The notes under the pieces are model-generated. The model was not told the DNA's origin. It did not search any database and saw only the letters and a program-made list of their open reading frames with translations. A stretch of DNA of 10,042 nucleotides, from the NCBI GenBank assembly GCA_046539225.1, contig JBKHHG010000023.1:1-10042 (forward strand), read 5' to 3'. Made by a program: the position numbers and the translations under genes. Below, one piece after another: positions 1 through 10,042 of the stretch; the stretch's first letter is position 1; every line of letters starts with the position of its first letter. This DNA comes from Candidatus Nanohaloarchaea archaeon. Lineage in GTDB: Archaea > Nanohalarchaeota > Nanosalinia > Nanosalinales > Nanosalinaceae.

Positions 1-2046
1 ACGACAGTGATGGTGGGTGAGAAGCCAAATGTTGCGAGTAAACTTGCTCAGGCCCTGGGTAATTACAGTGTTGAGGAGAACCGAGGGGTCAAGAACTATA
101 TTCTTGAGAAGAACGGTGAGAAGATTATTATTGCTCCGGCCGTTGGACATATCTTTAATCTTGAGGATCAGAGCGGGGACTGGGATTATCCTACTTTTGA
201 TGTGGAGTGGGTTCCAACCTTTGAGACGAATGACTCTGCGGACTACATGAAAAAATATTACAACAATTTGAAGGACCAGCTTGAGAAGGCGGATGAGTAC
301 ATCAACGCGTGCGACTACGACCTGGAAGGCTCGGTCATCGGAAGCAACGTTATCAAGCATCTTGCTGAGGCCTCGGATGACAGGATCAAGAGGATGAAGT
401 TTTCCACATTGACCGCGAGCGATTTAGAGGAGGCCTTTGACGACCTTGAAAGCTTTGATAAGGGTATGACCGAAGCAGGGTTAACTCGGCATGTTCTTGA
501 TTTCTATTATGGTATAAATGTTTCCCGGGCATTGATGAAAGCAGTACGGGAGAACGACCGGTACAAGACGTTGAGTACGGGAAGGGTTCAGGGCCCGGCC
601 TTATCTATGCTTGCGGAGAAGGAGAAGTCGATCATGGAGTTTGAGCCGGATCCTTACTGGGAGATCTACCTGAAGAACTCCGAGGTTGAGGCCCAGCTGG
701 AGCACGAGGATGAGGACCGGATCTGGGAGGAAGAGGTCGCAGAGCAGATCTACCTGACTGTTGAGGGCGAGAAAGATGCGAAGGTTTCCGATGTTGATAC
801 CAGGAACTACAAGCACAAGGTACCCGTGCCTTTCAACCTGACCGATCTCCAGAGCGAGGCCTCAAGCCAGTTTAACATTAATCCGAAGAAGACCCAGTCG
901 ATCGCCCAGACTCTGTATGAAAACGGTTTGATCTCGTATCCGCGTACCGAGTCCCAGAAGCTTCCTGCGAAGATTGGCTACAAGAACCTGCTGAAGAGGA
1001 TTAAGAACCAGGGTAGTTACACGGATCTCGCGGAGAAAGTTCTGGACAAGGATGAGATCTACCCGAAGCAGGGTAAGAAAGAGGACGATGCCCATCCCGC
1101 GATCTATCCAACAGGGGAGCAGCCCGGAAACTTATCGAAGAAGGAGAGAAATGTGTATGACCTGATTGTGAAGCGTTTTCTGGCCGTGTTTGGAGAGGCG
1201 GCGCAGAGGCAGAGCATTACAATGACTCTTGAAGTTCTGGGATACGAGTTCAAGGCCAAGTCAAAGATCACGCTGGAGAGGAACTGGTTTGATCTCTACG
1301 ATCCCTATGTACGGGTGGAGGAGGCCGAGCTCCCTGAGCTTGAGGAGGGCCAGGTCCTGGACGTGGAAGAGTTTGAAAAGGTTGAGAAGGAGACCAAGCC
1401 GCCGAGAAGGTACTCACAGTCAGGTATCGTCTCCGAACTTGAGAAGAGAAACCTTGGGACAAAAGCCACGAGAGCGCAGATCGTCGACAGGCTTTACAAC
1501 CGTGATTACATCGAAGGCGATCCGATCGAGGTAACGGATTTAGGCCTTTCAATCGTCGACACACTCCAGAAGTACTGCCCTGAGGTCGTCTCCGAGGACC
1601 TGACACGCGAGTTCGAGCAGAAGATGGAGGAAATCAGAGATGGAGAAATAACAAGGCCTGAAGTTCTGAACGACGCAGAGAAAAACCTGGGAGAAGTGCT
1701 TAGAGAGTTCAAAAAGCAGCAGAAGGATATAGGAGCTGAGCTCGTCCAGACTATAGACGCGGAGAGGAATAGGAAGAGAAAGTTAGGGCCTTGCGAGAGA
1801 TGCGAAGACAGCGATAGAGATGGAGGGGTCTTGCAGATTATAAAGGCGAACGGCAGTCGTTTCGTGGGCTGCACCAACTATCCCGACTGTGAAAACACTT
1901 ACCCGCTTCCAAACAATGGCAACATCAACTCTACCGATAAAGAATGTGATGAATGTGGTAAGCCGGTGATCTACGTGGAGAGGAAGAACAATAAGGATTA
2001 CTCCATGTGTATAGACCCTGACTGCCCCTCTAAAGACGACTGGTAA
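1..2046 (+). CDS. topA: DNA topoisomerase type IA (archaeal TopA/Top3-like) with C-terminal zinc ribbons; start probably at or just upstream of the window edge
   Basis: Toprim EKP..A and DYDLEG (DxD) motifs, GRVQGP, catalytic ISYPRT (Tyr codon 937-939), AHPAIYPT, LGTKATRA, and two C-terminal Cys4 clusters (CERC...CTNYPDC; CDEC...CIDPDC). The frame is open from base 1 (T-T-V-M-V-G-E-K-P), so the true start may lie just before the window. Confidence 0.95.
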   Translation, partial: TTVMVGEKPNVASKLAQALGNYSVEENRGVKNYILEKNGEKIIIAPAVGHIFNLEDQSGDWDYPTFDVEWVPTFETNDSADYMKKYYNNLKDQLEKADEYINACDYDLEGSVIGSNVIKHLAEASDDRIKRMKFSTLTASDLEEAFDDLESFDKGMTEAGLTRHVLDFYYGINVSRALMKAVRENDRYKTLSTGRVQGPALSMLAEKEKSIMEFEPDPYWEIYLKNSEVEAQLEHEDEDRIWEEEVAEQIYLTVEGEKDAKVSDVDTRNYKHKVPVPFNLTDLQSEASSQFNINPKKTQSIAQTLYENGLISYPRTESQKLPAKIGYKNLLKRIKNQGSYTDLAEKVLDKDEIYPKQGKKEDDAHPAIYPTGEQPGNLSKKERNVYDLIVKRFLAVFGEAAQRQSITMTLEVLGYEFKAKSKITLERNWFDLYDPYVRVEEAELPELEEGQVLDVEEFEKVEKETKPPRRYSQSGIVSELEKRNLGTKATRAQIVDRLYNRDYIEGDPIEVTDLGLSIVDTLQKYCPEVVSEDLTREFEQKMEEIRDGEITRPEVLNDAEKNLGEVLREFKKQQKDIGAELVQTIDAERNRKRKLGPCERCEDSDRDGGVLQIIKANGSRFVGCTNYPDCENTYPLPNNGNINSTDKECDECGKPVIYVERKNNKDYSMCIDPDCPSKDDW

Positions 2047-2049
2047 GGC

Positions 2050-2331
2050 CTAACTCGAGCCTATCTCCTCTCTTTCAAGGTCGATGGCTGTATCGATCAA
2101 CAGTCTTCCGAGCTGGCGGCCTCTCTCCCTTGGAAGATCTTTCTCATCGAAGCGGTCGGCGAACTGGCGCATGACTTCTTCCTCCCGGTCCTCGTCCTTC
2201 ACATCCATATCGTTTTTCTCCTTGTACTCAACGATCCTGAGGACTTCAGCCATTCTCTCATCTACTTTTTCAACTATCTCCTCGTTTATCTCATCTATGT
2301 TCTGTCTTGCGTCTTCAAGCGCGTTACCCAT
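2050..2331 (-). CDS. Monofunctional chorismate mutase, AroQ/type II
   Basis: Helical ~93-aa protein LEDARQNIDEINEEIVEKVDERM...IVEYK...VKDEDREEEV matches the AroQ pattern (R..ID.ID..I..L...R....I...K......D..RE..V) and sits next to tyrA and pheA. ATG 2331 is preferred over the ORF-track GTG 2349 because a TATA-like TTTTTAAG lies at -31..-24. Confidence 0.85.
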   Translation of the reverse strand: MGNALEDARQNIDEINEEIVEKVDERMAEVLRIVEYKEKNDMDVKDEDREEEVMRQFADRFDEKDLPRERGRQLGRLLIDTAIDLEREEIGSS

Positions 2332-2354
2332 AACAGTAAAGAACTGCACAAGGC

Positions 2355-2362
2355 CTTAAAAA
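2355..2362 (-). promoter_or_regulatory. Putative TATA box (TTTTTAAG) for a leaderless chorismate mutase transcript; the T-run may double as the tyrA terminator
   Basis: Directly follows the tyrA stop, 24-31 nt upstream of ATG 2331, which is typical archaeal leaderless spacing. Confidence 0.5.
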
Positions 2363-3217
2363 CTATCTTACCTCATCCGAGAGAAACTCGATAACCATGT
2401 CTGTTCTCTGCTGTGCACCTTCAAGATCAAACTCCTCTCCAAGCTCCTTGAACTTCTCGGCGAAGGCCTCTTCATCGCCTACAACTTCCTGAAGGGTTTC
2501 AGCCGACTCCATAAAGCTTTGCCGGATCTCCTCGTTTTCAGGGTTTTCAGCCTGTATAGAACCGTAGAGGCCTGGCTTCTGGTTCAGCATTCGCGCGGTC
2601 AAATCGGTTATCATCTGGTAGACCGGGGAAGAATACTCCGCCATGTCTTCACCGGTCAGATCCGTTTTCCTGATGGTTTCAGCAACCACAAGCTCCGAAA
2701 AATGCATAAGACCCTGTACAAGACTCATAGCCCTGTCATGGCTCTCAGGATCAGTAACATGTATCTCTGCACCTCTCTCTTTCCAGAACTCTTCCATCTC
2801 AGTCCATAGAGAACCTTTCTCAGGCGTCAAGACAATTTTCTGGCCTTTAATCGAGTTGCTTGGCGCATACATGGGATGCATTCCCAGGACTTCGTTCGAA
2901 TACTTTTTCATGGCATCAACAGGTTTCTTCTTGACAGATGTTATATCACAGAGCAGTGAATCCTCAGAGACATGAGGCCCAACCTCTTCAATAACCTCAA
3001 CAGTTACAGAGATCGGGACAGCGATGATTACAACATCAGCATCTTCTACAATCTCAGTATTTTTTCCATAATGCCAGCCATGATTTTCAGCGACCTCTGA
3101 GGCCTTTTCAACGTTCTTGCCGGATATAACTATTTCATTGTCGTCTTCCAGGGCTTCTCCAAGGTGCTGGCCGAACTTTCCCGTCCCTCCGACAATCGCA
3201 ACCCTTCTATCAATCAC
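2363..3217 (-). CDS. tyrA: Prephenate (or arogenate) dehydrogenase
   Basis: Rossmann VAIVGGTGKFG, ADVVIIAVP, LLCDITSVK, GMHPMYAP, HDRAMSLVQGLMH. Start placed at GTG 3217, overlapping the aminotransferase stop (3210-3212), with GGAG upstream. Confidence 0.9.
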   Translation of the reverse strand: MIDRRVAIVGGTGKFGQHLGEALEDDNEIVISGKNVEKASEVAENHGWHYGKNTEIVEDADVVIIAVPISVTVEVIEEVGPHVSEDSLLCDITSVKKKPVDAMKKYSNEVLGMHPMYAPSNSIKGQKIVLTPEKGSLWTEMEEFWKERGAEIHVTDPESHDRAMSLVQGLMHFSELVVAETIRKTDLTGEDMAEYSSPVYQMITDLTARMLNQKPGLYGSIQAENPENEEIRQSFMESAETLQEVVGDEEAFAEKFKELGEEFDLEGAQQRTDMVIEFLSDEVR

Positions 3218-4319
3218 TTTGAACCATCTCCGATTCCAGCCGGTCAAAGGCCTTCTCGATTTCGTCTTTTGTGGTGGATCCGAAGCAGATCCTCACGTTT
3301 TCATCGCTTTCAGGTCCCATCGGCTCGCCAGGTACCATTGCAACACCTTCCTTAATCATATCCATGCAGAAACTCCAGGAATCTTCTCCAACCTCTGGGA
3401 AAGCGTAGATTGCGCCTTCAGGAGCGACAAAGCTCCAGCCAAGCCGCTTCATTCTTTCAACAAGAAGGTCACGTCGCTCATGATAGGTTTCACGCATTTC
3501 TTCCACGTGAGAATCGTTTTGAAGCGCTTCAATCGCGGCGTACTGTGAGATTCTTGGCGGACACGCGGTAGAGGCCCGGGAAACCTTTGCGTACTCCTCA
3601 ATGTTTCCAGGTTCGTCGACCAGCCAGCCGACCCGCCAGCCTGTCATGGCATGGTGCTTGGAGGTCGAGCCTATTACTGCAGCGTTTTCAGTGTAGGCTG
3701 CTGGTGAAAAGTGTTTTCTGCCGAAAGTCAATCTGTGGTAGACCTCGTCCGATAGAAGGAAAGTATCGTGTTTATCTGCAAACTCTGCGATTTCTTTTGC
3801 CTGTTCTTCGCTGAGGACGTAGCCTGTCGGGTTTCCAGGCGTGTTAACAACCACCATGTCCGCATCCTTGATTTCCTCTTTTGCTTCAGGCCTCAGGTTT
3901 CTATCACTATCCCAGTACTGTACCTGCGTCCATTTGTTTTCCGAGACCTCGCTTATCATTTTGTACGGCCCCCAGCATGGATCATTGAACACTGCTTTGT
4001 CGTTTCTTCCAAGTCTTGCGGCGAAAACTGCGTAGAGCGCTCCCATTCCTCCTGTCGTTACCATGACTTCTTCTCTGGAAACTTCAAGGCCTTTTTTCAT
4101 TGATTCTTCCTCTGCGATTTCTTCTCTTAGTTCTTCAAGACCGAGCATCGGAGAATAGCCTTGCTTGTTTTCCAGGCCTTTTTTAGCGGCTTCTTTCACG
4201 TGTTGCGGCGTGTCGAAGCTGGGCTGGCCTATGTCAAATCTGACGATTTCATCCTGTTCCGCGGCTTTTTCTGAAATCTTTCTTATTGAGAGGCTGATGT
4301 TTTCGATTCTTTCCCTCAT
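3210..4319 (-). CDS. PLP-dependent class I/II aminotransferase (AspC-like; likely aromatic amino acid transaminase by context)
   Basis: DIGQPSFDTP, GYSPMLG, NTPGNPTG, SDEVYH, GSTSKHHAMTGWRVGW (PLP lysine), PEGAIYAF, VRICF. ATGA overlap with pheA (4316-4319) and a GGTGAT Shine-Dalgarno. Confidence 0.92.
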   Translation of the reverse strand: MRERIENISLSIRKISEKAAEQDEIVRFDIGQPSFDTPQHVKEAAKKGLENKQGYSPMLGLEELREEIAEEESMKKGLEVSREEVMVTTGGMGALYAVFAARLGRNDKAVFNDPCWGPYKMISEVSENKWTQVQYWDSDRNLRPEAKEEIKDADMVVVNTPGNPTGYVLSEEQAKEIAEFADKHDTFLLSDEVYHRLTFGRKHFSPAAYTENAAVIGSTSKHHAMTGWRVGWLVDEPGNIEEYAKVSRASTACPPRISQYAAIEALQNDSHVEEMRETYHERRDLLVERMKRLGWSFVAPEGAIYAFPEVGEDSWSFCMDMIKEGVAMVPGEPMGPESDENVRICFGSTTKDEIEKAFDRLESEMVQSD

Positions 4320-5092
4320 TTTTCATCACCTGCTATCTTGAAGCTGCCGAGATCCTGGACTTTTCCATAGGTTTCAAGGCATTTTTTTGCGTTCTCAAGT
4401 TTTTCGCCGGCAGCGTTTGCCTCGACGTAGAAGTAGTACTCTCCAAGTTTTCTCTTGGTGGGCCGTGACTGGAGATGGCTCAGGTTGATCTGATGACCGG
4501 CGAAACACGAAAGCATTGCATGAAGCAGTCCTGGCCGGTCCTCACCCGGATCCAGGATCAACGCAGTCTTTTCCTCAGCCTCTGCTTCTCCGTTAAGCAC
4601 GAAGAAACGAGTAATGTTTGTCTCGACGTCCTGGACAGAAGTCTCCAGTATATTCTTCCCGTTGATTTCTGCGGCAATCTCCGAAGCCAGTGCCGCTTCA
4701 CCGCTTCCAAGATTTTCTACAGCAGCTGCGGTTGATCCGGTCTCTTCTTTACTCCATTCATGCCTCTGTATAATTTCCTTTGACTGTGAAAGAGCCTGTG
4801 GATGTGACTTCACCTTTTCAATGTCTTCAATTGATTCTTCCTCCGAAATCAGAGCATGCTGGATCCTGAGATGGATTTCAGCAGTTATTGTATCGTCTCC
4901 TTCTCTTAGAAGCTCTACTGTATCTGATACCCCGCCTCCGAGCGAGTTCTCGACCGGGACAAACTTTGTCTCGATTTCTGACTCGAAAACTTCTCTGATG
5001 GTCGAGCAGAAAACCGGTTCCAGGTTTTCAAAGTATTTATCCGCTGCCTGATGAGTATAGGTTCCCTCAGGGCCGAGCAATGCTACTTTCAT
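4316..5092 (-). CDS. pheA: Prephenate dehydratase with C-terminal ACT domain
   Basis: LGPEGTYT, VPVENSLGG, SHPQALSQ, STAAA, catalytic NITRF, ACT-domain DRPGLL...INLSHLQSRP. Confidence 0.93.
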   Translation of the reverse strand: MKVALLGPEGTYTHQAADKYFENLEPVFCSTIREVFESEIETKFVPVENSLGGGVSDTVELLREGDDTITAEIHLRIQHALISEEESIEDIEKVKSHPQALSQSKEIIQRHEWSKEETGSTAAAVENLGSGEAALASEIAAEINGKNILETSVQDVETNITRFFVLNGEAEAEEKTALILDPGEDRPGLLHAMLSCFAGHQINLSHLQSRPTKRKLGEYYFYVEANAAGEKLENAKKCLETYGKVQDLGSFKIAGDEK

Positions 5093-5093
5093 T

Positions 5094-5162
5094 TAAGGCC
5101 TCAACTCCTTCATACATTACCGGTGTGATTTGAATCCTTTAATATCTCTGCTTGAGGCCTTA
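5094..5162. repeat. Perfect 11-bp inverted repeat flanking the pheA upstream region
   Basis: TAAGGCCTCAA (5094-5104) and TTGAGGCCTTA (5152-5162) are exact reverse complements with a 47-nt spacer. Confidence 0.85.
5137..5144 (-). promoter_or_regulatory. Putative TATA box (TATTAAAG) for the pheA-aminotransferase-tyrA operon
   Basis: AT-rich box preceded by purine-rich GCAGAGA (BRE-like) on the minus strand. AAGGAG SD-like element at 5105-5110. Confidence 0.45.
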
Positions 5163-5169
5163 CCTGTTC

Positions 5170-5610
5170 TTATTCTCTGCCCCAGTAGCCGGGGAGGCCG
5201 TCCCATTCCGAGAACTCTGTCGGCGGGAAATTCGTGTCCTCTTCTTCAATGTACCGGGCGATCTGCTTCGACTGCTGCGGGTGAAGATCGCTGTCTTCAA
5301 CGTCTTTCCTGAAGATTTCTGTCGCTCCTACTTTCTCATCCGGGTAGAGATGCTTGGCGATATCCTCGACTGTTTCAAGCTCGTCTTCGTCAAAGGCGAG
5401 GCCTGGGTCAAGCATCTCCCTTTCTCTTCCGCGGACGTATTCCACCCCGGCGCAGTCGAGAACCGTGTAGACTATATCGATCTCTGAATATCCCTCGGCT
5501 TCTTCCCACCATGAACGTTTCCAGCCCTCTACCTCATATAAATCGGGCTGGCGCTGCCTCTGGACAAGGCCTCCATCAGCCACTTTTTCAGGGCTGTATT
5601 CAGAGGGCAT
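5170..5610 (-). CDS. Hypothetical acidic protein (146 aa)
   Basis: Glu/Asp-rich composition matching neighbouring genes. ATG 5610 is preceded by SD-like GTGAT (alternative start GTG 5619). No family recognised. Confidence 0.7.
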   Translation of the reverse strand: MPSEYSPEKVADGGLVQRQRQPDLYEVEGWKRSWWEEAEGYSEIDIVYTVLDCAGVEYVRGREREMLDPGLAFDEDELETVEDIAKHLYPDEKVGATEIFRKDVEDSDLHPQQSKQIARYIEEEDTNFPPTEFSEWDGLPGYWGRE

Positions 5611-5699
5611 AGAAATCACTGTATCTATTTGTAGGGGTTTTGCGGGTTGCGTTGCATGGTGTGTTGTGTGTTTTGAGTTTCATTTTTGAGAGCACATCA

Positions 5700-5915
5700 G
5701 AAAAAGGCCTTTCACCGGTTAGAGCAGAAAGGCCTAAAGTTTACAGTAAAAGCAGCAGTAGAAGATCAGCGGTTAAAATTCTCGAGTCAGAAAATGCAGT
5801 GCAGAATCTATTTTTGTAGAACGTAGAATTCAAAGATTTCTGCTCAAGTAATGTTCTCTTTCGAGAGACATTGCAGAACGCGTCCACCTTTAGTTCGGGC
5901 GGAAGTACTCATCGT
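5700..5915 (-). ncRNA. Candidate structured non-coding RNA or cis-regulatory leader (unassigned family)
   Basis: Upstream TATA, two nested or adjacent stem-loops (5883-5903; 5838-5878 with a tetraloop), terminal hairpin plus T-run, and no long ORF. Confidence 0.4.
5701..5735 (-). terminator. Hairpin followed by a T-run (terminator-like) on the minus strand
   Basis: AGGCCTTTC (5705-5713) and GAAAGGCCT (5727-5735) form a perfect 9-bp stem with a 13-nt loop, followed by TTTT on the minus strand. Confidence 0.5.
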
Positions 5916-5937
5916 ATCCTAAAATGAGAGACAGGCC

Positions 5938-5945
5938 TTTAAAAA
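5938..5945 (-). promoter_or_regulatory. Putative TATA box (TTTTTAAA) firing into the 5700-5915 region
   Basis: Minus strand reads AAAGAG-TTTTTAAA-GGCCT (purine-rich BRE-like element plus TATA), nearly identical to the chorismate mutase promoter context. Confidence 0.5.
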
Positions 5946-5976
5946 CTCTTTGTTGAGGGGTAGCTACAGTTGTGTT

Positions 5977-6663
5977 CTATAGCAGGCCTCTGGTTTCCTT
6001 TTCCTCGACTATTCCCTCGTTGGCTATTGAAAACTTTCTTGACCTGCCTTTAGGTATTGAACGGTGCTTGGAGACCTCCATTTTTCTGCTGGAGTTTTCT
6101 GAAAGCTTTATCAGGCATTTCGACCAGTACTTTGGTACGTCTCGGCCTACAAGCTCCAGGTCTTCTTCATCGAAGCTTGTGTAGACCTGGTTGGTGATCA
6201 TAATCGGTATGCTGTGTTTACGGGCGATTTTTGAAAGCTCGGAGAGCTGCTGGGATAGCCGCTGGTTTACCTCGGAGGCGTTTTCCCCGTCGACTTTCAG
6301 ACGGTAGAGGGAGACCGCGGAGTCCACCACGATCAGGTCGATCTCCTCGGATTCCACCATGGCCTCGAGTTCCTCGACTGTCTCCTCCTGCTGGCTGAAC
6401 TCGACCGGGTTCTTGATTACAATGTTTTCCAGCGAGGTCTCTCCTCCTATCTGTTTCATTCTTTCCGGTGAAAATCCTCCTTCTGTATCTATGTATGCTA
6501 CTTTTCCTCCGTTGGCCGCGACTTCTGCCGAGGCCTGGATGCAGAAAGCCGTCTTTCCTGTTCCTGACTCTCCGTAAATGTTTGTGATTACTCCTTTCTC
6601 GATTCCGCCTTCGAGCAGCTCGTCTATGGGTTCTGAACCGGTTGGGACTCTTTCTACTTCCAC
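5977..6663 (-). CDS. radB: DNA repair and recombination protein RadB
   Basis: RecA-family core without the RadA N-terminal domain: PTGSEPIDELLEGG, Walker A GESGTGKT, YIDTEGGFSPER, Walker B LIVVDS, ITNQVY, and the RadB-typical C-terminal KHRS basic patch. Start placed at GTG 6663, with TATA-like ATTTAAG about 25 nt upstream. Confidence 0.92.
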   Translation of the reverse strand: MEVERVPTGSEPIDELLEGGIEKGVITNIYGESGTGKTAFCIQASAEVAANGGKVAYIDTEGGFSPERMKQIGGETSLENIVIKNPVEFSQQEETVEELEAMVESEEIDLIVVDSAVSLYRLKVDGENASEVNQRLSQQLSELSKIARKHSIPIMITNQVYTSFDEEDLELVGRDVPKYWSKCLIKLSENSSRKMEVSKHRSIPKGRSRKFSIANEGIVEEKETRGLL

Positions 6664-6684
6664 AGTGATTATTGCTTCACAATC

Positions 6685-6736
6685 CTTAAATCGGTGCACA
6701 GAATTTTTTTACTCACGTCAATAAAAAAACTTATAA
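6685..6736. promoter_or_regulatory. Divergent promoter region (radB TATA ~6685-6691 on minus; TTATAA 6731-6736 on plus) with a central imperfect palindrome
   Basis: Both boxes lie about 25-30 nt from their start codons (6663 and 6761). A-rich BRE-like sequence precedes TTATAA. Confidence 0.6.
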
Positions 6737-6760
6737 TAGTTGCATACTCTGAGTCTTATT

Positions 6761-7096
6761 ATGGAAGAACGTCCGGCCTCTCTGCTGACCTACAAGACCC
6801 ACAGGGAGAAGTTCAAATCTATGTATGAACGGAACCAGTTCTACAGAGGCCTCTTCGGCTACAAGCAGACGGTCAAGAAAAACGGTAAGAAGTACGAGTA
6901 CGAGAAAGACGGGTTGATGGACGAGGTTCCGAACGTCAGGATCGACGACTCGGTGTTTATAGTTGCGAAGGAGGCCTGCGAAAAGGTGGACGTATACTTC
7001 CAGGAATGGGGAGAAAAAGTCACACATCACATCTTCAAAGTTATAATAGACAAGCCGGATCTTATCGAGGCGCTCGAGAAAGGTGAGAAAGCATGA
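6761..7096 (+). CDS. Small hypothetical protein (111 aa), possible Cas2/VapD/PaaX-like ferredoxin fold
   Basis: ATG 6761 lies 25 nt downstream of TTATAA. The stop overlaps the cdc48 start (ATGA 7093-7096). The fold guess comes from the pattern LLTY...[11 protein letters not shown]...GL...RIDDSVFIV...VDVYFQEWG. Confidence 0.75.
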
Positions 7097-9366
7097 CAAA
7101 TGAAAACGAAGACAATGTCAGGCTGCGTGTAGGCGAAGTACCTCCGAACGCGCAGCAGGACGTCGGCAAGGGAATAGTAAGAATAGACTCCAAAATCATG
7201 GAAGAACTCGGCATAAAGGAAGGCGACGCTGTAACGGTCGAGGGCGACCGGAAAACAGTTGGGATCGCCGCAAGAAGCTATCCCGCGGATAAAGGCCTTG
7301 GAATCGCCAGGATGGACGGCTACATGAGGAAGAACGCGGGAACCTCTCTCGGAGAGCATATAGAAGTCGAAAAAGCCGAGTTAAAGGAGGCCAAGAAGAT
7401 TACGCTGGCTCCTGCCGAGGAAGGCGTCATGATGCAGGTCAGCGACCCCAATATTTTCAAGAGGAGTCTGGCCGGAAGGCCTGTAATGCAGGGTGATATT
7501 ATCTCGCCCGGAAACCAGGATAAGCCTCGCTCATTCTTTGACGACATGTTTGAAAGTGCAGCGGACAACTTCTCGTTCTCGTTCGGCGACACAAAGCTGA
7601 GCGTAGTAAAGACCAAGCCTAAAGGAGCTGTAAAGGTAACCCAGCATACAGAGATCGAGATGAAGGAACGAGCCATAAAAGAACCGAAGCAACAGGTGAA
7701 AGTTCCGGAAGTAACTTACGAAGACATTGGAGGCCTCGACCAGGAAGTCCAGCAGGTAAGAGAGATGATCGAACTCCCATTGAAACATCCCGAGGTCTTC
7801 CAGCAGCTTGGAATCGATGCGCCCTCCGGGGTGCTTCTACAGGGTCCTCCAGGCACAGGAAAAACATTGCTTGCGAAAGCAGTTGCGAACGAGGCCGACG
7901 CAGAGTTCCTCTCCATCAACGGGCCGGAGATAATGAGCAAGTACTACGGAGAATCAGAGAAACAGCTTAGAGAAAAGTTTGAAGAGGCGCGTGAAGGAGA
8001 GCCAGCGATCGTGTTCATCGACGAGATCGACGCCATCGCTCCAAAGAGAGGCGACGCTGGAGGAGAAGTAGAGAGACGGGTCGTCGCCACCCTACTTTCC
8101 GAGATGGACGGTCTGGAGTCACGGGAAAACGTTATTGTGATCGCAGCAACGAACCGGGCCGAGGCCATCGACCCAGCATTGAGAAGAGGTGGAAGGTTCG
8201 ACCGTGAAATTGAAATCGGAGTACCGAACAGGGAAGGCAGAAAAGAGATCCTCCAGATCCACACCAGGAACATGCCTCTCGCCGACAACGTAGAACTCGA
8301 GGAAATGGCGGAACTCACCCACGGCTATGTTGGAGCCGATCTCGAGGCCTTGTGCAAGGAGGCCGCTATGGCCACGCTGAGAGATATTCTTCCAGAGATC
8401 GATATGGATGAGGAGATCCCGAGCGATGTACTGGAGAAACTGGTGGTCGACCGCGACGCGATGATGGAAGGCCTTAGAAACGTCGAGCCAAGCCAGATGA
8501 GAGAGGTAATGGTAGAAGTTCCACAGGTGAGCTGGGAAGACGTTGGAGGCCTCGACCAGACCAAGGACCGGTTAAAGGAGATGGTCGAATGGCCTCAGAA
8601 ATACCCTGAAAGATTCGAGAAAATGGGTATTGAAGTACCGAAAGGTATCATGCTTTACGGAATGCCGGGAACAGGCAAAACCCTCTTAGCAAAAGCAATC
8701 GCAAACGAGGCCAACGCCAACTTCATCTCAATCAAAGGCCCGGAAGTATTCTCCAAATACGTAGGAGAATCAGAAGAAGCAGTAAGAGAAATCTTCAAGA
8801 AGGCAAGACAGGTAGCACCCTGCATCCTATTCATAGACGAAATCGATGCGATAGCACCGAGAAGAGGAGGCGGCAGCAGTGACTCCGGAGTAGGAGACCG
8901 GGTAGTAAACCAGCTGCTCACAGAACTGGACGGCATCGAATCCCTTGAAGGCGTAACAGTTATCGCAGCAACAAACAGGCCTGACATGATCGATCCAGCG
9001 ATCACAAGGCCTGGAAGAATCGATAGAAGCGTCGAAGTAGAAGTACCGGACAGGGACGCAAGAAGAAAGATCTTAGAGGTCCACACTCGGGATATGCCTC
9101 TTGCTGACGATGTAGATCTCGACGAACTGGCTGAAAAAACAGAGAACTTTGTCGGCAGCGACATAGAGGCTATGTGCAGAGAGGCAGCGATGATATCACT
9201 GCGTAACAACCCTGAAGACGAAGAAGTGTCTATGCAAGAGTTCGAAGAGGCTTTGAAGGATACCAATCCTACAGCAAACGAGGAAAACCAACAGCTTTAC
9301 AGGCAGATGACCCAGAAAATGAAGGATATAGACCAGGACGAAGCAACGCCCGACTACCTTGGATAG
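7093..9366 (+). CDS. cdc48: Cdc48/VCP/p97 family AAA+ ATPase
   Basis: N-domain ([21 protein letters not shown]) and two AAA modules: GPPGTGKT / [12 protein letters not shown] / [11 protein letters not shown] and GMPGTGKT / [12 protein letters not shown] / [16 protein letters not shown] at 7082-7086. Confidence 0.97.
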
Positions 9367-9369
9367 GCT

Positions 9370-10011
9370 ATGAGAAAAGTAACGAGAGATGAGATGACCC
9401 GGTTAGAGGATAAGGCCTTCAGGGATTACGGTTTAAAGCCTTCAAAGCTGATGGAGAACGCCGGCTACCAAATAGCGGACTTTATCAGGAAGAATCTGGA
9501 GGCCTCAGGCATAACGGTTTACGCAGGGAGAGGTAACAACGGTGGAGATGCGTTTGTCGCGGCGAGAAGGCTTCACAACTGGGGATTCGACGTTGAAGTC
9601 GTGACAGCGGGAAAGGTAGAAGGCCTTCCGGCCGAGGAGCTCCGGATTCTAGAAAAACTTGGAATTATGCCTCGGGAGGAACCTGAGAAGGATTTTTCCG
9701 TTGCTCTTGACGGGGTTATAGGCTCGGGCCTGAAAGGAGATCCAAGGCCTCCGCTCGACTCCATGATACGGGATGTGAACAGTCATGACACTGTTGTCTC
9801 CATCGATATAGCTTCGGGCGTTGACCCGGATACAGGGGAGGAAAAGGATCCATGTGTCAGACCTGATTACACGTTGACGCTGGGATTCCCGTTTGAAGGC
9901 CTTGATGCTGGAGGGGTTTACGTCGTTGACATCTCTCTTCCCCGTGAATTTTATGAGGAGGCCTTGACCGGTGCGATACCCTACGAAGAGTTCCAGTCCG
10001 ATATTCAATAA
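9370..10011 (+). CDS. nnrE: NAD(P)H-hydrate epimerase (stand-alone YjeF N-terminal domain)
   Basis: LMENAG, GRGNNGGDAFVAARRL, DGVIGSGL, SIDIASG, PDYTLTLG. Starts 3 nt after the cdc48 stop. Confidence 0.9.
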   Translation: MRKVTRDEMTRLEDKAFRDYGLKPSKLMENAGYQIADFIRKNLEASGITVYAGRGNNGGDAFVAARRLHNWGFDVEVVTAGKVEGLPAEELRILEKLGIMPREEPEKDFSVALDGVIGSGLKGDPRPPLDSMIRDVNSHDTVVSIDIASGVDPDTGEEKDPCVRPDYTLTLGFPFEGLDAGGVYVVDISLPREFYEEALTGAIPYEEFQSDIQ

Positions 10012-10042
10012 AAAACAGAACATAGCCCGGGCATTCAGGAAC

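Follow-up and report, generated by a model that had tools for sequence, protein, structure and literature searches.

AGGCCT is a genome-wide iterated palindrome in some nanohaloarchaea, possibly driven by a methylation-independent reader protein

This study concerns the palindromic hexamer AGGCCT, which is the StuI site and occurs 39 times in a 10,042-nucleotide stretch of Candidatus Nanohaloarchaea archaeon DNA (contig JBKHHG010000023.1 of assembly GCA_046539225.1, positions 1 to 10,042, hereafter the window). We find that the AGGCCT excess is real and strong and that it switches between lineages, and we narrow its cause. A force acting on DNA is shown to change synonymous codons and amino acids alike. 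With a little less than even confidence, we propose that this genome-wide iterated palindrome is driven over short ranges by a candidate reader protein that acts independently of methylation.

Excess of AGGCCT, effect on proteins and site turnover

Dinucleotide shuffles of the window contained 2.77 ± 1.69 copies of AGGCCT and none of 200 reached 39, which bears out the count and the large excess given in a first-pass annotation made from the sequence alone. Recounting also agreed with its statements that about half of all GGCC are flanked by A and T (39 of the 77 in the window are AGGCCT), that AGG CCT encodes six of the ten Arg-Pro dipeptides, that all three codon phases are used, and that seven copies are intergenic or at gene junctions (those starting at 2046, 2351, 5096, 5155, 5705, 5730 and 5933 do not lie wholly within a gene).

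The excess extends beyond the window to the whole genome to which it belongs, here called G000; the other G-numbers denote compared Nanohaloarchaeota genomes, termed high when AGGCCT-rich and low when AGGCCT-poor. G000 contains 2,850 copies in 606,781 bases (4.7 per kb, about one per 210 bases), spread over all 38 contigs at 1.7-5.8 per kb. The observed/expected ratio (O/E) under an order-1 Markov model is 16.4, and AGGCCT is the top-ranked hexamer at maximal order. Using our own gene calling (697 genes), we counted 2,522 coding copies, against 351 ± 15 after synonymous shuffling that kept proteins and codon usage, an approximately 7-fold enrichment that was present in each reading frame (443/916/1,163 observed versus 59/148/145 shuffled). 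Intergenic DNA is as densely populated as genes, at 5.3 per kb. We refer to a place where the encoded protein allows AGGCCT as a permitting position and to the fraction of such positions that are filled as occupancy, which amounted to 2,538 of 3,254 positions (78%) in G000 and 3,842 of 5,172 (74%) in G010. For Arg-Pro, the log odds of AGGCCT were 4.0 in G000, 3.5 in G010 and 3.1 in G022, versus -0.2 in the low genome G024.

The outcomes that the first-pass annotation had named as fatal to its own claim, namely an excess confined to the window, lost on codon shuffling (codon-pair-preserving in that annotation, synonymous with codon usage kept here) or produced by assembly, were not those obtained; with regard to the last, 11 further genomes carry the excess. 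Contigs from two public runs of one study span the window with few differences, and because they may be its source, the independent evidence is that of the other genomes. None of 40 strain differences listed for the window falls within AGGCCT, an uninformative result given that ~0.9 would be expected.

The effect on proteins was assessed in 401 orthologue triplets from G000, G010 and G024 (~63-66% identity). Permitting peptides numbered 1,879 in G000 and 1,617 in G010, a 1.6-1.9-fold enrichment over the 1,006 of their sister G024; Arg-Pro, Gly-Leu and Ala-Ser were the three most enriched dipeptides, and reversed-peptide controls were flat. According to the accessible part of PMC2817400, the same test on uptake sequences had the same outcome, with encodable peptides enriched and reversed controls flat. 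Site turnover in orthologous genes, a comparison that the first-pass annotation had suggested, was followed in the same triplets, and most sites proved lineage-specific: 983 were present in G000 and not in G010, 731 in G010 and not in G000, and 526 in both. Where both proteins permit the site, 526 positions were filled in both genomes, 67 in neither, and 108 and 114 in one. The 526 shared sites among 815 jointly permitting positions compare with ~498 under independence, at a G000-G010 distance at which synonymous sites are near saturation.

Distribution among Nanohaloarchaeota and other archaea

Twelve of 70 Nanohaloarchaeota genomes are high, at 2.0-4.7 AGGCCT per kb (genome sizes rounded). 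They belong to four genera (g1, 4 of 5 genomes; g7, 3 of 3; g19, 3 of 3; g2, 2 of 6). G003 is intermediate at 0.95 per kb and the remaining 57 genomes do not exceed 0.7. When 30 genomes were placed on a tree of CDC48, the high genomes fell at scattered places within one clade of 12, next to low sisters. Among named sequences, those closest to the window are from Nanohaloarchaea. Nine named nanohaloarchaeal loci were divided, with L063 (titled Nanohaloarchaea archaeon SG9) at 4.2 per kb, L066 at 3.0 and the other seven at 0.04-0.65. No enrichment was detected in any of 121 Halobacteria (maximum 0.29 per kb), nor in any of 151 genomes from the phylum Nanoarchaeota (maximum 0.57 per kb).

G003 looks like a recent loss of the trait, because permitting peptides persist in it (5.1 permitting positions per kb) while sites decay: only 15 of 60 positions are filled, versus 0.67-0.74 in its three sisters, and orthologous sites have been eroded through several different synonymous changes. 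G024 has no relic of peptide enrichment (Arg-Pro 0.78 versus Pro-Arg 0.80) and G022 a weak one, a combination that fits separate gains or different strengths.

An AGGCCT excess was also seen in two pieces of unrelated DNA: the IMG/VR viral contig L325, with 27 copies in 8.1 kb and no acidic proteome, and the poorly coding metagenome contig L503, with 52 copies in 5.7 kb. Pattern scans (the first of which covered 11 of 64 parts), an integrase scan and look-ups in phage collections yielded no nanohaloarchaeal virus, and a metagenome scan covering 9 of 64 parts gave mostly repeats; these blanks are uninformative.

Specificity, spacing and candidate explanations

Sequence specificity was determined with AGGCCT masked and codons shuffled, comparing G000, G010 and G022 with G024. 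Single-base deviations were confined to the outer bases, the GGCC core being invariant: AGGCCC was up 2.9-fold in G000, 3.5-fold in G010 and 4.7-fold in G022, and AGGCCA/G 1.2-3.3-fold, while GGCC words with neither flank stood at 1 or below in G000 and G010 and were affected more broadly in G022 (up to 2.5). The six words with one mismatch in the core were not depleted; they equalled the G024 baseline in G000 and G010 and were somewhat lower in G022. A depletion of neighbouring words suggested by unmasked Markov ratios was gone under the masked, codon-shuffled controls. A pyrimidine at +1 and an A at +3 went with higher occupancy (z ~6 in G000 and G010, with codon-pair bias uncorrected), and intergenic sites also favour A at +3 (0.49 and 0.40, the background being 0.29-0.30). 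With its fixed core, graded outer bases and weak flanks, the specificity looks like that of a protein-binding signal rather than of mutation.

Occupancy also depends on the distance to the next site. Positions 12-23 bp from it have an occupancy of 0.63/0.50, those 24-47 bp away 0.78/0.67 and those at least 96 bp away 0.81-0.84 (the class below 12 bp is partly mechanical), and the permitting positions of G024 show no short-range dip. Since occupancy is reduced near another site (within ~50 bp), the unit of the force is tens of bases. Two Haemophilus uptake sites within 100 bp are likewise not additive, according to the portion of PMC7811141 available. No clear helical (10-11 bp) period was found. 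A role in promoters or terminators was rejected, as the only peaks, right after stop codons and 17-20 bp before starts, are 1.5-2-fold, which we read as low constraint.

Some DNA is sparse in AGGCCT, including rRNA (4 in 4,327 bases), tRNA (5 in 3.5 kb and 7 in 4.6 kb) and apparently foreign genes, and the word is missing from the S-layer gene, EF-1alpha (which has two permitting positions only), Cas8 and a tRNA-flanked island of G010. A poor proxy for expression revealed no more than a slight dip in occupancy. In the type I-B CRISPR array of G010 (G010:C1:798759-800153), two of 21 spacers contain AGGCCT where ~0.16 would be expected, a weak hint that parasites of G010 carry the motif; no protospacer for these spacers was found in the DNA compared.

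To account for these data we tentatively envisage a candidate protein that would read unmethylated AGGCCT and would favour DNA bearing it over tracts of ~50-100 bp during recombination, gene conversion or DNA exchange; such a drive would push the site to near-saturation. A fixation advantage for protein-read, site-bearing DNA would explain the graded specificity, the undrained neighbouring words, the local redundancy and the decay after loss. Conversion of near-matches is disfavoured because it would drain the neighbouring words, and these are undrained. The reader would presumably be a single protein. Drive seems preferable to selection on the organism because thousands of interchangeable sites, which cost amino-acid changes and are dispensable in sisters, arise more easily by drive. 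The sites are probably unmethylated in high genomes, to judge from the absence of methylase genes described below.

Several points weigh against this proposal. No reader protein was found, and 12 candidates fail to track the trait. ComEC (PF03772) was found in none of the five complete genomes and classical uptake is therefore unsupported. Known uptake sequences, as far as the available part of PMC7811141 describes them, are non-palindromic and often closely paired, whereas close AGGCCT pairs are depleted. The modest correlation of site presence between G000 and G010 is also predicted by site-specific selection, and a drive does not predict the ~75-kb wave of site density in G010 that is described below.

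The screen for a reader drew on one complete high and one complete low genome, and each of the 12 candidates was rejected either for its absence from a high genome that is complete or nearly so, or for its occurrence in low genomes. The trait is not tracked by a DUF2582 winged-helix protein or an Endo_dU nuclease (41 genomes each), by a SWIM zinc finger (70 genomes), or by a 462-aa hypothetical protein, a pilin-cluster protein, DnaG, a MarR-like protein, a CopG-nucleotidyltransferase or PolB2 (five genomes each), the last of which high G022 lacks and low G053 and G061 possess. Nor is it tracked by NucS alleles, by those of one histone paralogue (the remaining two or three paralogues lying outside the alignment), or by RadA alleles, which gave the strongest gene-level discordance, high G022 sharing its type with low G024. 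Two RadA types in fact occur in one family: that of G000 (C4:15346-16296) is 85% identical to that of G010 and 68-70% to those encoded at the same locus in G022 (C1:20420-21370) and G024 (C1:20168-21124), the changes lying in the C-terminal region. The DnaG match carries one internal TAG in G005 (C1:11697-12824) and in G023 (C14:12866-13969), and neither G024 nor G053 yielded a DnaG. An inserted cluster at G010:C1:415818-450031 encodes a surface protein of 8,573 aa and a second protein of 625 aa, each of which has HerA/VirB4-like ATPase domains. G022 has this cluster as well; G024 lacks it, and so does the syntenic locus of G000. As a determinant of the trait it appears disfavoured, since that G000 locus is intact in its absence and the ATPase is widespread in archaea of the DPANN group.

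The main rival, which we hold to be somewhat less probable, is that ordinary selection maintains the sites because a chromosome-organising protein, such as a nucleoid protein or an SMC-loading factor, binds at thousands of them with a footprint of some tens of bases. The short-range exclusion is of footprint scale and the flank preferences reach +3 in genes and intergenic DNA alike, both as such a protein would predict. It would also explain, better than drive does, the 74.7-kb period (amplitude ~10%) in the AGGCCT density of the complete G010 chromosome. This period has a block-shuffle p of 0.001-0.004, is matched by none of 612 control hexamers at that period (0.8% at any period), survives GC regression and is the top period in both chromosome halves. 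The analysis is nevertheless post hoc and comes from one genome (G000 is too fragmented and G022 is represented by 260 kb), and the period is shared by a weaker GC peak and has modest power, not being the top peak, in the occupancy residual alone. Further evidence against an organiser is that most sites are lineage-specific, that sisters in genera g1 and g2 do without AGGCCT, and that one histone paralogue, the DUF2582 protein and two other helix-turn-helix or ribbon-helix-helix proteins do not track the trait.

Improbable, in our view, is the ratchet of Elhai, in which the GGCC core is methylated by a methyltransferase and mismatch repair, directed by the methyl mark, retains whichever strand has gained a site. 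It predicts local saturation as well, and deviations are tolerated at the outer bases only, as for the cyanobacterial highly iterated palindrome HIP1 (the part of PMC4390886 available). The enzymes it calls for are nevertheless hardly in evidence. The C5 methylase family PF00145 was found in none of the three single-contig high genomes (G005, G010 and G022) and the N4/N6 methylase family PF01555 in neither G005 nor G010, these two families being the ones covered by the profile search in G005 and G022; MutS was found in none of the five complete single-contig genomes. The complete proteome of G010 yielded no DNA methylase by motif search or by homology to the methylases of relatives. Five G010 proteins with an amino-methylase motif were not DNA-methylase-like, three carrying it by chance and two being short with counterparts in the low genome. 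A Pfam scan of 326 proteins that are G010-specific or shared with high genomes found no methylase, with ~220 G010-specific membrane proteins, proteins shorter than 90 aa and, among the 237 soluble proteins specific to G024, 108 lying outside it. The low genome G024, by contrast, encodes a HaeIII-like methylase (E 2e-95) beside an NgoPII-family nuclease (L244:491-2407) and avoids every GGCC word (O/E 0.08-0.62), as well as ACGT; G020, also very low, has a near-identical methylase. The exceptions are high G004, with a C5 methylase, and high G022, with an N4/N6 family match (specificities not established), and a host-delivered or plasmid-borne enzyme could still serve such a ratchet. The search for a co-occurring methyltransferase advised in the first-pass annotation gave matches in G004 and G022, none in G005 or G010, and a GGCC methylase identified only in low, GGCC-avoiding genomes. 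That annotation had also inferred a genome-wide process that creates or retains AGGCCT; a DNA-level, HIP1-like process is supported and a methyltransferase plus biased mismatch repair is not, while the binding site and the recombination or self-recognition tag it listed are now the two leading explanations.

We find it very hard to credit a context-dependent bias of mutation or repair (through Vsr-like patch repair, a variant of NucS or an error-prone polymerase) that turns near-matches into AGGCCT. It would be expected to operate throughout the genome whatever the function of the DNA, and NucS, present in 32 of 35 genomes, is the sole mismatch-repair family found of the two searched (MutS and NucS). 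No one-mismatch neighbour is depleted, however, including the two C-to-T neighbours AGGCTT and AGGTCT (O/E 1.68 and 1.50 in G000 versus 1.64 and 1.44 in G024), which runs counter to a Vsr signature. Moreover, a comparison of NucS between 10 high and 20 low genomes gave no residue that tells the two groups apart, the distribution of PolB2 is at odds with the trait, and interference between neighbouring sites would be unexpected. Finally, although the site can be encoded by common codons, there is practically no chance that biased use of codons or codon pairs, base composition or faulty assembly explains a word 7-fold above synonymous shuffles, at 5.3 per kb in intergenic DNA, in 12 genomes and in matching two-run contigs.

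Among known systems, HIP1 (GCGATCGC) and the alternate cyanobacterial HIPs are alike in being short palindromes in more than 15-fold excess, placed in all frames and between genes, with deviations at the outer bases, as described in the accessible portions of PMC4390886, PMC5861425 and PMC13756078. HIP1 too is lost or gained between relatives. It also has a long-range periodicity, which AGGCCT may share to judge from one genome and which the available text of PMC5861425 uses to argue for a chromosome role of HIP1; a methylation-dependent gain in transformation is described for HIPs in the part of PMC13756078 that could be read. AGGCCT differs in being archaeal, in being a 67% GC hexamer where alternate HIPs have at least 75% GC (PMC4390886, in part), and in its density (2,000-4,700 per Mb versus 1,000-2,000 for the cyanobacterial words). 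No cognate methyltransferase or MutS was found with it, and a methylase for its core occurs in avoiding genomes. Although AGGCCT behaves like HIP1, we do not file it as a HIP proper, because no cognate methylase was found for it and its GC content is too low.

The uptake sequences of Pasteurellaceae and Neisseriaceae resemble AGGCCT in an approximately two-fold peptide enrichment, scarcity in rRNA and newly acquired DNA, an invariant core, graded flanks and redundancy of close sites (accessible parts of PMC2817400 and PMC7811141). They are 9-10 bp long, non-palindromic and often paired, whereas AGGCCT is a 6-bp palindrome with depleted close pairs and no ComEC found. Although it has left the same signature in the proteome, AGGCCT is not an uptake sequence. 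Type II restriction sites of the HaeIII/NgoPII type (GGCC) belong to the same word class, with avoidance there (G024), the opposite of the AGGCCT excess. Chi sites are over-represented short words tied to recombination that are polar and strand-oriented, which a palindrome such as AGGCCT cannot be. We found no account of an AGGCCT excess in archaea in the full-text literature, supplements and most subscription papers not being covered, and the word is absent from the main text, as far as available, of PMC11001535, PMC10266531, PMC10609329 and PMC3316494. For one cultivated nanohaloarchaeon, the accessible text of PMC11001535 and PMC10266531 reports only GDGCHC methylation.

More speculatively, and with considerable doubt, AGGCCT may mark self DNA in the manner of uptake, Chi and HIP words and be the first such signal from an archaeon. 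It would then be an unmethylated tag whose candidate reader, a horizontally mobile protein, would push its own sites through genome and proteome, be on or off within genera, pattern the chromosome at ~75 kb and be opposed by the GGCC restriction systems of sisters, which would cut such DNA every ~130 bases. If the gap in the literature is real, AGGCCT would give the first indication in DPANN archaea that exchange or chromatin involves a sequence-specific signal. The origin of HIP1, and the role of methylation in creating it, have been debated for three decades. Here, a HIP-like word denser than HIP1 is found in 1-Mb genomes without recognisable methylase or MutS, and because it is on, off or decaying among close relatives, its reader should be findable from a comparison of some dozens of small genomes, and enrichment can be disentangled from methylation. 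A DNA-level force that rewrites the proteins of a reduced symbiont also matters for how amino-acid change is read in these lineages.

Gene content of the window

The features of the window and their AGGCCT sites are compiled in Table 1.

Table 1. Features of the window, with database evidence and AGGCCT sites
Feature	Position	Strand	Evidence and sites
39 AGGCCT palindromes	368..9964	.	32 in genes (three codon phases), 7 intergenic/junction; sample of genome-wide 4.7 per kb
DNA topoisomerase I (topA)	7..2046	+	NCBIfam TIGR01057 above cut-off; 5 sites and one spanning the stop codon (2046-2051)
Chorismate mutase-like gene	2050..2331	-	TIGR01805 below cut-off; 0 sites
Prephenate dehydrogenase-like gene	2363..3247	-	NCBIfam search; 3 sites
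Pyridoxal phosphate-dependent aminotransferase	3210..4319	-	NCBIfam search; 4 sites
Prephenate dehydratase-like gene (pheA)	4316..5092	-	NCBIfam search; 0 of 4 permitting positions filled
Hypothetical protein	5170..5610	-	No NCBIfam match; 2 sites
Intergenic region	5611..5976	.	3 sites: 5705, 5730, 5933
RadB	5977..6699	-	TIGR02237 above cut-off; 2 sites
Hypothetical protein	6761..7096	+	NCBIfam search; 2 sites
CDC48-family AAA ATPase	7093..9366	+	TIGR01243; 8 of 9 permitting positions filled; tree marker
NAD(P)H-hydrate epimerase (YjeF N-terminal)	9370..10011	+	TIGR00197; 6 sites

CTAG is nearly absent from G000 (O/E 0.06 at order 1, versus 0.38 in G010, 0.53 in G022 and 0.81 in G024), and no methylase was found. 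Within the window, a short intergenic inverted repeat at 5701-5739 has as its arms the AGGCCT copies at 5705 and 5730, 25 bp apart. The minus-strand genes at 2050-5092 form a four-gene Phe/Tyr cluster (chorismate mutase, prephenate dehydrogenase, aminotransferase and prephenate dehydratase), which one would not expect a reduced symbiont to have, and the lack of AGGCCT in its first and last genes hints at a more recent arrival of these genes.

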